Below, in pieces: positions 1-6,724 of a DNA stretch of 6,724 nt. A program made the translations under genes and the position numbers. The notes below the pieces were generated by a model. It was given only the letters and a program-made list of their open reading frames with translations. It was not told the DNA's origin and searched no databases. Numbering within the stretch: position 1 is the stretch's first letter; the number at the start of each line of letters is the position of its first letter. The DNA comes from a virus (taxonomy: Duplodnaviria; Heunggongvirae; Uroviricota; Caudoviricetes), in IMG/VR virus record IMGVR_UViG_2713896831_000003. One strand, written 5' to 3'.

Positions 1-139
<139 letters not shown>

Positions 140-224
140 CAAATGAAGTACTGAAAACAGCAGTTAAACCGGAATGGTTTGAGCGTCACAAGATTGAATT
201 AGGTTATTGGGGTGAGGAGGTTTT

Positions 225-991: not shown

Positions 992-1056
992 TGGAATTGG
1001 TGATTATCTGTTTTGTATTGATTGGTATGATTGCAGGTGCATCTATTAAAGTATAA
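991..1056 (+). CDS. Small hydrophobic peptide, 21 aa (MELVIICFVLIGMIAGASIKV), candidate single-pass membrane peptide
   Basis: ATG at 991 overlaps the TAA stop of the preceding gene (TAATG). AAGGTGG (976-982) sits 8 nt upstream. The sequence is almost entirely hydrophobic, consistent with one transmembrane helix. Below the ORF-track size cutoff. Confidence 0.35.
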   Translation: MELVIICFVLIGMIAGASIKV

Positions 1057-1081
1057 ATGTTACCAATCTGTTAAAAAGCTG

Positions 1082-1110
1082 TTGACAAATAACCTTGAGC
1101 ATGACATAAT
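1082..1110 (+). promoter_or_regulatory. Sigma70-type promoter, near consensus
   Basis: TTGACA (1082-1087), 17-bp spacer, CATAAT (1105-1110). Predicted transcription start around 1117. Confidence 0.6.
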
Positions 1111-1287
1111 TGTATATATAGGGAGAGCAATTCTCCTTGAATTAAAATATTAATCGTCTCTACATCGATGATAACTATATTCTGAGTTGGAAAGGTGCAA
1201 TGCTTTTCGTCATGGCCTTTCAGGTTAGTCTGAGAGGCTATCTCAAAAAGTGCTTAATCATTCATTCATTGAACCCTTTACAGCTTT

Positions 1288-1316
1288 GCCCTAATCATGA
1301 GTTAGGGCGTTTCTTT
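1288..1316 (+). terminator. Putative intrinsic terminator or attenuator within the leader
   Basis: Stem GCCCTAA (1288-1294) / TTAGGGC (1302-1308), 7-nt loop, followed by GTTTCTTT (1309-1316). Confidence 0.45.
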
Positions 1317-1387
1317 AAGAGTTTTCAAACAGAACTTTTAAAGAAAGTTTTTCCTGAAACTTCGTTAACGTTATAAAGCAAACCTCC

Positions 1388-1434
1388 AAAGCCCTTCACA
1401 GATGAGGATGAACCTATGTTTAGGGCTTTTCTTT
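1388..1434 (+). terminator. Second terminator-like hairpin within the leader (weaker)
   Basis: AAAGCCC (1388-1394) pairs with GGGCTTT (1423-1429) around a ~28-nt loop, followed by a T-rich run (TTTTCTTT). Its 3-prime half, TTAGGGC-TTTCTTTA-AGAG, repeats the motif at 1302-1321. Confidence 0.3.
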
Positions 1435-1529
1435 ATAGAGCATCTTTAATAAATCGTTAAGTCATCTTCTAAGTGTATTGGCGTTGAAGGTGCTCTATTA
1501 AGAAATAATCACACTTAGAGGAAATTATA

Positions 1530-2240
1530 ATGACAAATGATATTTACATTAATGGCAGAAAGGTTGATAGCTTCGGTGACTGGTCGCCACAGACTGAACA
1601 TCCAGCTATCACTATTCAGCGTAAAGAACACGATGAAAGAATTAAGCTTGAGCAATCGTTAAAGATGTCACCAAAGGTAATTTCCTTTGTGTCTCCTGAG
1701 CCTCAAGAAATGCCAGATATCTGCAAAAGTGAAGCACTATTTAATCTTGAGCGTGAATATTACCCACAGTTAAAAGCACAGCGTATTAAACTTGATGACG
1801 CTTACAGCAAAGTTACCCTGATGCAATCAGCTATTGAGCCGTCAGAATTTGAGATTCAGGATGAATTGTCACAGAAACCATTTGTCTATTACCAATACGA
1901 AGATAATGATGGTTTTGGTACTTTTCCTGAGAATATCCCAGACGTGATTAATAATCTTCCTGACGGATATCGAATTGTGAAGATGGTTAAAGCTTCAAGG
2001 GGTGCTGGTCAATTTATTTATATGACTAATAAGAGCGATGAAGAACTCTGTGAACTTGCTAGACAGAACATCTTGGCATCACGTAACAAGCAACTTGAAA
2101 ATGTTAAGTTGTATCTCTCAAGAGAGCTTCAGGCTATGAAAGAACTTGTTAGTGAATATGAATCACAGAAGAAGATTGCTATGCAAGCCGATATTGAGCA
2201 GTTAATGAAGATTTCTCAGAAATATGCAAAGGCTATTTGA
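1530..2240 (+). CDS. Hypothetical protein, 236 aa, with a predicted coiled-coil-like C-terminus
   Basis: ATG at 1530 with AGAGGA (1517-1522) 7 nt upstream. Long ORF with codon usage consistent with its neighbours. No recognisable catalytic motif. Confidence 0.7.
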   Translation: MTNDIYINGRKVDSFGDWSPQTEHPAITIQRKEHDERIKLEQSLKMSPKVISFVSPEPQEMPDICKSEALFNLEREYYPQLKAQRIKLDDAYSKVTLMQSAIEPSEFEIQDELSQKPFVYYQYEDNDGFGTFPENIPDVINNLPDGYRIVKMVKASRGAGQFIYMTNKSDEELCELARQNILASRNKQLENVKLYLSRELQAMKELVSEYESQKKIAMQADIEQLMKISQKYAKAI

Positions 2241-2248
2241 GGTGATTA

Positions 2249-2557
2249 ATGAATGATTTAACAGAACGCGATAAAAGAATTAAAGGGGTGATGGAACCTT
2301 TTGAAGATAGGTTCAATGAAATTAAAACGACTCTTGGTGATATTCAGGAGGTCACTGAATATCTTATTGGTCGTATGGACGAAAAGCCTCTTGCCGAACT
2401 AAAGTGTGATGGTCGGGATGATTTAACGCGACTTCTTATCGAACTCAAGGATAAGATAAATAAGCTTGATACTGTGTATTATCAAACTGGTCTTTCACTA
2501 CGTTATGAAATTCAAAAGAATGAACGCGGTGTCGAGTGTATACACTACTTAGATTAA
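2249..2557 (+). CDS. Hypothetical small acidic protein, 102 aa
   Basis: ATG at 2249 with GAGGTGA overlapping the upstream stop. The N-terminus MNDLTER is shared with the next ORF. Its position two genes upstream of the tape-measure gene is compatible with a tail assembly chaperone, but there is no direct evidence. Confidence 0.65.
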   Translation: MNDLTERDKRIKGVMEPFEDRFNEIKTTLGDIQEVTEYLIGRMDEKPLAELKCDGRDDLTRLLIELKDKINKLDTVYYQTGLSLRYEIQKNERGVECIHYLD

Positions 2558-2582
2558 AATCGAATTAAAAAGGAGGTGGTGA

Positions 2583-2786
2583 ATGATTGATTTAACAGAA
2601 CGCTATGAACTCATCAAGGCAATTAGTGAACGACTGAAAGAACAACCCAACAAACCAAAACGAATCAAATCATCCACCTCTAAGCAAAATAACAGAATCA
2701 GAAGAATCGCTAAATGGTGTCTTGATAAATTACCAAGTGATTGTCAGATTGTTGGTGAAGATGGCAATTATTATCTGGTTGGGTAA
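2583..2786 (+). CDS. Hypothetical small basic protein, 67 aa
   Basis: ATG at 2583 with AGGAGGTG (2571-2578) upstream. The N-terminus MIDLTER is paralogous to the 2249 gene. The central region is rich in Lys and Arg. Confidence 0.6.
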   Translation: MIDLTERYELIKAISERLKEQPNKPKRIKSSTSKQNNRIRRIAKWCLDKLPSDCQIVGEDGNYYLVG

Positions 2787-2811: not shown

Positions 2812-2853
2812 GGGAGAGATTATCGAGTGACATCGGTAGTTTCTCCCTTTTTT
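2812..2853 (+). terminator. Rho-independent terminator
   Basis: Long hairpin 2812-2826 / 2833-2847 (about 15 bp including G-U pairs, loop GTGACA), followed directly by TTTTTT (2848-2853). Confidence 0.75.
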
Positions 2854-5004: not shown

Positions 5005-5075
5005 TGCTACGTGAAATCTTCTGAACAGATATACCCACCAAAAATTATTTTTTACGTAGCTCACGCTTAACAGAG
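5005..5075 (+). promoter_or_regulatory. Conserved intergenic element, copy B (candidate promoter or operator upstream of the 5151 gene)
   Basis: Collinear with 2861-2931 at roughly 70% identity (by eye). Internal inverted repeat GCTACGTGAAA ... TTTTTTACGTAGC (5006-5016 / 5048-5060). Confidence 0.45.

Positions 5076-5938: not shown

Positions 5939-6724
<786 letters not shown>

Follow-up and report, generated by a model that had tools for sequence, protein, structure and literature searches.

A stretch of 6,724 nt recorded in IMG/VR as a virus of the class Caudoviricetes (IMGVR_UViG_2713896831_000003; hereafter the window, meaning the whole stretch that was analyzed) contains two consecutive small genes on the plus strand, gene A (open reading frame, ORF, 2249-2557; 102 amino acids, aa) and gene B (ORF 2583-2786; 67 aa), which begin with nearly the same bases. 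We propose, with a probability of roughly 0.58, that this similarity stems from a partial gene duplication in which A carries a copy of the initiation region and first seven codons of its downstream neighbor B, and that the copied start lies at a mosaic boundary. Both genes are part of a chromosomal island of Escherichia coli and precede its tape measure protein (TMP) gene; the window was compared with related islands (numbered L001 onward).

Extent of the shared start

The first 21 bases of A (ATGAATGATTTAACAGAACGC, 2249-2269) and of B (ATGATTGATTTAACAGAACGC, 2583-2603) match at 20 of 21 positions, with an A/T difference at position 5 as the single mismatch; each 21-mer comprises the start codon and six further codons, giving proteins that begin MNDLTER and MIDLTER, and 334 nt (2583-2249) separates the starts of the two direct copies. 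An earlier reading of the sequence alone (the sequence-only reading) had described these near-identical starts of two adjacent genes, one base apart, and the match proved to be longer than first noticed. Similarity extends upstream into the Shine-Dalgarno (SD) sequence, with 28/31 bases identical between GAGGTGaTtAATGAaTGATTTAACAGAACGC (2239-2269) and GAGGTGgTgAATGAtTGATTTAACAGAACGC (2573-2603), written GAGGTGATTAATGAATGATTTAACAGAACGC and GAGGTGGTGAATGATTGATTTAACAGAACGC in the alignment, and a repeat finder returned 32/37 over 2239-2275 and 2573-2609 (family D2). The upstream portion of the match is complementary to the 16S rRNA 3' end and is therefore partly generic, unlike the 15 identical bases (GATTTAACAGAACGC).

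Within the window, the A and B starts are the sole direct pair of 21-mers with at most one mismatch, and none of 300 first-order Markov random sequences of the window's composition and size gave such a pair. The codons common to both genes (GAT-TTA-ACA-GAA-CGC) include CGC, which accounts for 6% of the Arg codons in the window, and their independent joint probability under the window's own codon usage is ~0.003, which argues for common descent over convergence. M-x-DLTER could instead be merely a common, well-translated N terminus that both genes reached by chance or convergence: unrelated genes in Schwartzia, Ureaplasma, an Anaerolineae metagenome-assembled genome and a viral contig begin with exactly this 21-mer pattern, and by our own estimate such outside occurrences are roughly as frequent as chance would have them in 596 Gb. 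Set against the random sequences, the codon identity and the location of both copies at adjacent gene starts, however, this explanation is extremely improbable.

Past codon 7, the DNA and proteins of A and B diverge, with only I-K at residues 11-12 still in common. Direct comparison by BLASTP gave E=0.22, and alignment of the A and B family profiles by hhalign was confined to residues 1-19 at 42% probability; whole-gene paralogy was rejected on these grounds, and the two proteins appear to be unrelated past about residue 19. A likeness of their C-terminal beta-hairpins, noted by eye and in structure models, could not be substantiated. The sequence-only reading had reckoned that unrelated families without a conserved N-terminal heptapeptide would refute its interpretation; the proteins do appear unrelated beyond their starts, but the heptapeptide is kept in most members of both families.

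Distribution of A and B and the direction of copying

Comparison of related loci, which the sequence-only reading had recommended, showed that the two genes differ in distribution. All islands examined have B ahead of the terminator and the TMP gene, and its body occurs in 371 of 5,426 complete E. coli genomes. The body of A was found in 131 of the same genomes, 114 of them carrying copies at least 99% identical that apparently represent one lineage, and in the A-less islands L004, L006 and L021-L023, B directly follows the 236-aa gene that otherwise precedes A. Where present, A falls into at least three divergent classes: the window type, a type seen in L008 (62% aa) and, in L005, a 138-aa type, A' (31%). 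A is accessory and rapidly exchanged, and B belongs to the core genes of this family of islands.

Relatives of A differ in whether they possess the shared segment. Among 22 A-family clusters, 14 start M(N/S/T)D(L/S)(T/K/Q)(E/R)(R/H), six start MIKW, and two start at a later Met. The MIKW form of Citrobacter island L009 is without exactly nine codons (AAT GAT TTA ACA GAA CGC GAT AAA AGA) between identical flanks, and the 93-aa Citrobacter forms accordingly are without NDLTERDKR. The segment is also missing from the A of L005, from the distant relatives P0083 and P0086, neither of which has an N-terminal extension, and from P0082 as annotated, which starts MEPIEDKL and may be truncated by its gene call. 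All B alleles have an N-terminal helix, beginning DLTER (16 of 28 clusters), DLQQR (DLQ(Q/H)R in four of 28) or (F/Y/I)(E/A)(E/D)R, and in a hand comparison of printed sequences the window's A start (-13 to +21) was identical to the B start of the A-less island L023 at 32 of 34 bases. The A relatives without the segment, together with the native N-terminal helix in all B alleles, support a direction of copying from B to A. Local duplication had been one of the options in the sequence-only reading, and it gains support from an accessory A, some of whose relatives are without exactly the common piece.

On the simplest reading, the segment originally belonged to B, and A acquired its copy in a single branch of the A family; A itself would be an accessory cassette placed between B and the conserved 236-aa gene. 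With the copy, A would gain a strong start, comprising an extended SD sequence (GAGGTGAT), ATG and A/U-rich unstructured codons, and at the same time the first turn of its N-terminal helix as a helix cap; the present role of the copied piece may be limited to the start region and this cap. Compared with shuffled controls, the start regions of both genes show less structure (z of +0.86 and +0.76). The locus combines the features of a segmental duplication, namely, two direct copies beyond chance, an unrelated flank on one side, relatives without one copy or without the recipient gene, and an abrupt change of identity.

Several points weigh against partial duplication from B to A. The direction and the mechanism by which the copy would have arisen are inferred from a few dozen alleles. 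The residues I-K at 11-12 and the 19 residues aligned by hhalign at 42% leave room for an older duplication of the whole gene. An A-less island with the junction left by recombination between the two copies was not found in the 5,426 E. coli genomes, in a search for single-piece, near-identical matches by a method that joins pieces, so divergent recombinants could have escaped it. Finally, the extension is kept in 14 of the 22 A clusters, including members only 62% identical, which suggests selection on the peptide and fits a functional motif equally well.

One such motif would be a docking peptide, in which the helix start M-x-D-L-T-E-R-x-x-x-I-K is kept since A and B bind the same partner, for example, the TMP or tube initiator of the island or its helper phage. 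It would be an analogue, without frameshift, of the N terminus common to lambda gpG and gpGT (see below), and it is compatible with an origin by duplication, ascribing the conservation to protein function. We regard this as possible but not probable. The motif lies in a predicted helix of both proteins and is found in most A and B clusters, which come from E. coli, Shigella, Citrobacter and Salmonella; the slot of A and B upstream of the TMP gene is held by two chaperone genes in Felixounavirus; and in Vibrio cholerae, PLE satellites have genes for a TAC, a TMP and a hub of their own (PMC12987554). On the other hand, the motif is dispensable in nature: Citrobacter A has lost nine codons in frame, L013 has lost four, and the A' class is without the motif; some B alleles have MFEER or MYEDR in its place. 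Motif types of A and B do not covary within islands, no homology to the Felixounavirus chaperones was detected, and no protein of the felixounavirus phiWec172 begins M..DL(T/Q/K/S)(E/Q)(R/H).

A mosaic boundary at the start of gene A

In a sliding comparison, identity between the window and L008 was 53-73% along the bulk of the 236-aa gene, rose to 80-100% in the final ~120 nt of that gene and was 100% from its end through +24 of A; it then fell to ~66% (nt) across the A body and returned to 93-100% from the 3' end of A through B. L012 combines a window-like A (90-100%) with a different B allele (36-70%), and in L007 the allele switch falls inside A. These differing breakpoints indicate that the whole 236-A-B interval is shuffled among islands, with the copied start block forming one conserved edge of the exchange of bodies; given that the block is conserved where A bodies differ, it marks the left edge at which A alleles swap between islands. 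The sequence-only reading had offered as a second option a recombination junction, with different gene bodies exchanged after a start region that stays the same. Window and L008 bear this out with A starts identical over 24 nt plus upstream sequence and A bodies at 62% in protein, although the exchange that is seen involves alleles of A only, with no swapping from A to B or the reverse.

Alleles of the 236-aa gene fall into two classes with unrelated N termini, MTNDIYINGRKVDSFGDW... and MSIRNEHEKEIDNKPLA..., on a conserved C-terminal part (L001, L004, L005 and L006 compared with L009, L012, L013 and L014), which makes this another mosaic joint in the A/B operon. Some copies of this gene carry the PGAP label "transposase," for which no family support was found.

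A second short repeat links A to the 236-aa gene, with A codons 5-12 (AGAACGCGATAAAAGAATTAA, ERDKRIK) resembling an internal segment of that gene (AGAACACGATGAAAGAATTAA, EHDERIK) (Table 1). Similar pairs are expected at a mean of 0.02 per random window sequence, and the L014 A allele matches the same segment at 20/22 by hand count. As AGAAC(G/A)C belongs both to this repeat and to the end of the one derived from B, the N-terminal extension of A may be a patchwork of two local sequences.

The two starts could also be kept alike in each island by ongoing gene conversion between the direct repeats, spaced 334 nt apart, and all synonymous sites are identical in the window. The A start of L011 (GATTCACAGCGACAT) is nearer to the DLQQR-type B start (GATTTACAGCAACGT; 12/15) than to other A starts (7/15; hand counts), which points to one or more additional exchanges of start sequence between the two genes. 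However, there is no covariation within islands: L011 pairs MNDSQRH in A with MIDLTER in B, L012 pairs MSDLKER with MYEDRLE, and L014 pairs MSDLTER with MIDLQQR, such that the nine A-plus-B pairs suggest independent start alleles. In L013, the A start differs from its own B start at four of 21 bases by hand count. Moreover, RecA-dependent exchange usually needs more than the 15 nt of perfect identity available here. Continuing conversion is thus quite improbable, but exchange between A and B starts has probably happened more than once, without homogenizing them within an island.

A shared translational control element, the third option of the sequence-only reading, has no support. The common ~31 nt would then be an RNA site for one regulator, either a small RNA or an RNA-binding protein of island or helper, that switches A and B together. 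The identity does span SD, AUG and first codons, which is the usual position of an operator; an ORF-poor stretch of the window (1000-1530) holds a strong sigma-70-like promoter, a terminator-like hairpin and 11 nt complementary to the A start; and the small RNA SviR of PLE is reported to bind the TAC and baseplate-hub transcripts of its helper (PMC12987554). Yet the 21-mer changes freely among islands at synonymous sites (ACA/ACT, CGC/CGT) as well as nonsynonymous sites (TER/QQR/KER/SQRH), independently in A and B, and many islands are without A or have an A without the segment. Neither start folds, no Rfam match was found anywhere in the window, and by our own estimate, made without a dedicated tool, chance alone would produce an 11-nt complementarity ~10 times in 6.4 kb; upstream, the matching bases are simply the complement of the 16S rRNA 3' end. 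With starts that do not covary and that vary at synonymous sites, no regulatory RNA element was found, and we consider joint regulation highly improbable.

Proteins A and B

Searches of Pfam, PHROGs, NCBIfam and PADLOC returned no family for A, B or the 236-aa protein. AlphaFold2 models built from family alignments, of moderate to low confidence, predict for A a helical hairpin (residues 3-45 and 57-80) with a C-terminal beta-hairpin (pLDDT 78.5, pTM 0.53) and for B an N-terminal helix (residues 5-20, pLDDT 86-89), a disordered basic linker and a small beta unit (pLDDT 71.2, pTM 0.29), with the common motif at the start of helix 1 in both. When these models were compared with BFVD and PDB by Foldseek, nothing matched at E<=0.001, and the structures returned were generic helical hairpins. 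A hidden Markov model search of 1.84 billion representative proteins with the A profile yielded eight relatives, all of one small family, and no A-family locus in GTDB species representatives or IMG/VR was confirmed by tblastn. By position and by analogy with PLE, the two proteins could have roles in tail assembly, with B as a chaperone or adaptor and A as a variable interference factor.

The island and its links to Felixounavirus

At least 113 complete E. coli chromosomes carry the inner 6.45 kb of the window at 100% identity, with none on plasmids. An intact copy (L001, strain AR434, NZ_CP029122.1) forms an island of ~11.5 kb (15903-27393), of which the window represents L001 20001-26445. 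The island splits yecE (DUF72) into two fragments that sum to the full gene and carries a 507-aa large serine recombinase at one end. Its gene order is AP2-HNH nuclease, three small unknown genes, HNH endonuclease, 107-aa gene, 236-aa gene, A, B, terminator-like hairpin, TMP (682 aa), Dit-like protein (257 aa) and recombinase. In the window, the 6.45-kb island piece is flanked by two inverted copies of an insertion sequence (IS), indicating that in the source island a 71-aa gene is interrupted at the left cut and the recombinase gene at the right one, and the IS-cut recombinase of the source genome has lost its catalytic N-terminal domain. Coordinates of these and the preceding features are given in Table 1.

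Table 1. Coordinates of features in the 6,724-nt window.
Feature	Coordinates	Strand	Remarks
IS100/IS21-family element, right end	1-140		Inverted copy at ~6585-6724
236-aa gene	1530-2240	+	First gene of the 236-A-B unit; stop TGA inside the SD sequence of A
Repeat copy 1: extended SD GAGGTGAT, ATG, codons 2-7 of A	2239-2269	+	Identical over -30 to +24 in L008 despite different A bodies
Gene A, 102 aa, accessory and variable	2249-2557	+	Predicted helical hairpin and C-terminal beta-hairpin; no Pfam/PHROG/NCBIfam/PADLOC match
Second short repeat: A codons 5-12	2263-2283	+	19/21 vs codons 32-39 of the 236-aa gene (1625-1645); repeat finder family D6
Repeat copy 2, probable source: SD GAGGTGGT, ATG, codons 2-7 of B	2573-2603	+	Same start in A-less islands L004 and L021-L023
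Gene B, 67 aa, core	2583-2786	+	N-terminal helix, basic linker, small C-terminal beta unit
Intrinsic terminator-like hairpin	2812-2847	+	15 pairs, then TTTTTT; ends the 236-A-B unit ahead of the TMP gene
TMP gene, 682 aa	2945-4993	+	Homologue of Felixounavirus TMP (742-747 aa)
Dit-like protein gene, 257 aa	5151-5924	+	Felixounavirus homologue immediately follows the TMP gene of the phage; 82% aa, 95% nt over 544 nt
Large serine recombinase, C-terminal part	5939-6583	-	Interrupted by IS at the right end of the window

Only three island proteins have homologues in phiWec172, these being TMP, the Dit-like protein and the AP2-HNH nuclease; the island TMP is 29% identical overall to that of the phage, with clearly conserved N and C termini. 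Pfam and PHROG searches and the comparison with phiWec172 revealed no capsid, terminase, sheath or tube genes in the island. Related islands occupy other chromosomal sites and are also present in Citrobacter, Salmonella and Shigella, with TMPs of 682-723 aa that are always shorter than the 742-747 aa of the phage. At ~60 residues less than its helper counterpart, the island TMP would predict tails shortened by ~9 nm. The two genes before the TMP gene in Felixounavirus, the slot that A and B share, are annotated as chaperones (132 and 79 aa); hhalign against both gave probabilities below 1%, and Pfam and PHROG returned no chaperone match. In the felixounavirus Bas63, the tube initiator gp18 is encoded after the TMP gp17 (PMC12609058), and judging from gene order, the Dit-like protein of the island would be the counterpart of gp18. 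With its homologues of both the TMP and the tube initiator of Felixounavirus, the island is probably a satellite in the manner of PLE, one that depends on virulent Felix O1-like phages but brings a TMP and a tube initiator of its own. Such a family of E. coli satellites is apparently undescribed so far, and the literature collection that was searched contained no paper on the island or linking satellites to Felixounavirus, Felix O1 or Ounavirinae. A noncoding match of 38 nt (89%) was observed between L001 (17845-17882) and phiWec172 (83094-83131), near the end of the phage genome, which could be a common replication, packaging or promoter signal.

Other features of the window

A 66-nt hairpin-like element (GCTACGTGAAATCT ... 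ATTTTACGTAGC ... CACGCTTAA) occurs at 2861-2926 and 5005-5070, just upstream of the TMP and tube-initiator genes. Some islands have one or two copies and others have none; it has no Rfam match and is not found in phiWec172, and neither is the repeat TGGTTRGGTAA. Possible roles for the element are those of a promoter or operator or of a processing site, or it may be mobile in its own right as a small element. At the end of B, a 14-nt direct repeat with two exact copies (TGGTTGGGTAAAAA, 2776-2789 and 2793-2806, 17 nt start to start) overlaps the stop of B before the terminator and may be a protein-binding site; in the three other islands read, the downstream copy is TGGTTGGGTA in L004, L005 and L006, and the upstream copy TGGTTAGGTAA is kept in L004 and L005. 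At the TMP start, a short out-of-frame ORF (2938-2964; ATG AAC AAT GAG CAA ATT TAC AGT TGA) begins 7 nt before the TMP start and overlaps the gene, and the arrangement ATGAA..ATG recurs at this site in other islands.

The promoter in the ORF-poor stretch upstream of the 236-aa gene is a near-consensus sigma-70 type (TTGACA-17-CATAAT with TG, 1082-1110), and the terminator-like hairpin lies at 1287-1309. The segment 1082-1316 is accordingly a candidate for a small RNA of ~200 nt; the 11 nt in it that are complementary to the start codon region of A are not significant alone.

Comparison with known systems

In Botstein's modular theory, mosaic joints of phage genomes reportedly lie at conserved gene boundaries, and short conserved boundary sequences are said to have been described in lambdoid phages. 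As in lambdoid mosaic joints, a short conserved block here stands at a gene start beside exchanged bodies, with identity switching abruptly at +24 of A. Unlike those joints, however, the block occurs twice in one element, one gene start having been, on the duplication reading, copied onto the neighboring cassette.

Phage lambda encodes gpG and gpGT upstream of its tape measure gene, two proteins whose N terminus is common through a -1 programmed frameshift. A and B likewise are two small proteins encoded directly upstream of a TMP gene and beginning alike, but they have only 7-12 residues in common and are separate genes with their own SD sequences. A 25-nt gap separates A from B, B has its own ATG immediately preceded by an in-frame TGA (2580-2582), B is in the +1 and not the -1 frame relative to A, and a terminator stands between B and the TMP gene. 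A frameshift chaperone pair was rejected on this basis and because no homology to the Felixounavirus chaperones was detected, in agreement with the sequence-only reading, which had discarded the same idea.

The parallel established by experiment is the PLE of V. cholerae, which has a large serine recombinase, and its TAC, TMP and baseplate hub (BhuB) build chimeric tails with the phage ICP1; PLE11 in addition encodes Rta, an 80-aa tail-assembly inhibitor that targets the phage TMP (PMC12987554). Like PLE, the island described here is integrative, has a large serine recombinase and may parasitize, or at least mirrors, a virulent myovirus, and it encodes its own shorter TMP and a hub-proximal phage homologue adjoining small unannotated proteins. 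It differs from PLE in host, helper and gene families. Putative E. coli satellites of phi92-like phages also carry a TMP and a baseplate gene (PMC10055350). The island resembles these in combining a TMP with a baseplate component while most tail genes are missing, and some of them have a serine recombinase; however, their genes also include those for RepA_N, a decoration protein and the major capsid protein, and they have Justusliebigvirus helpers, whereas the island has no recognizable counterparts of these genes and relates to Felixounavirus.

A and B could be viewed as the small-protein arm of a chimeric-tail module in an undescribed family of satellites that reside in E. coli, Citrobacter and Salmonella and exploit virulent Felix O1-like phages, in which B would act as a chaperone or adaptor for the shorter TMP of the island, the hypervariable A as an Rta-like inhibitor of helper tail assembly, and the common helix start as a docking handle on the same intermediate, making the pair a frameshift-free counterpart of gpG/gpGT. 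We consider this extended scheme unlikely.

Biological significance

The repeat is an ordinary trace of module shuffling, and the surrounding island is the more interesting object. As a duplication, the repeat would provide an example of an accessory gene in a mobile element that gains expression by borrowing the start of its neighbor, and it marks a site of allele swapping. Its main value lies in marking a variable slot beside the TMP gene in an island family present in 371 of 5,426 complete E. coli genomes. Felix O1-like phages are used for typing and therapy, and the island family mirrors their two tail-nucleating proteins. If the island is a satellite or a defense that interferes with tails, gene A would be the obvious candidate for a specificity or arms-race factor.

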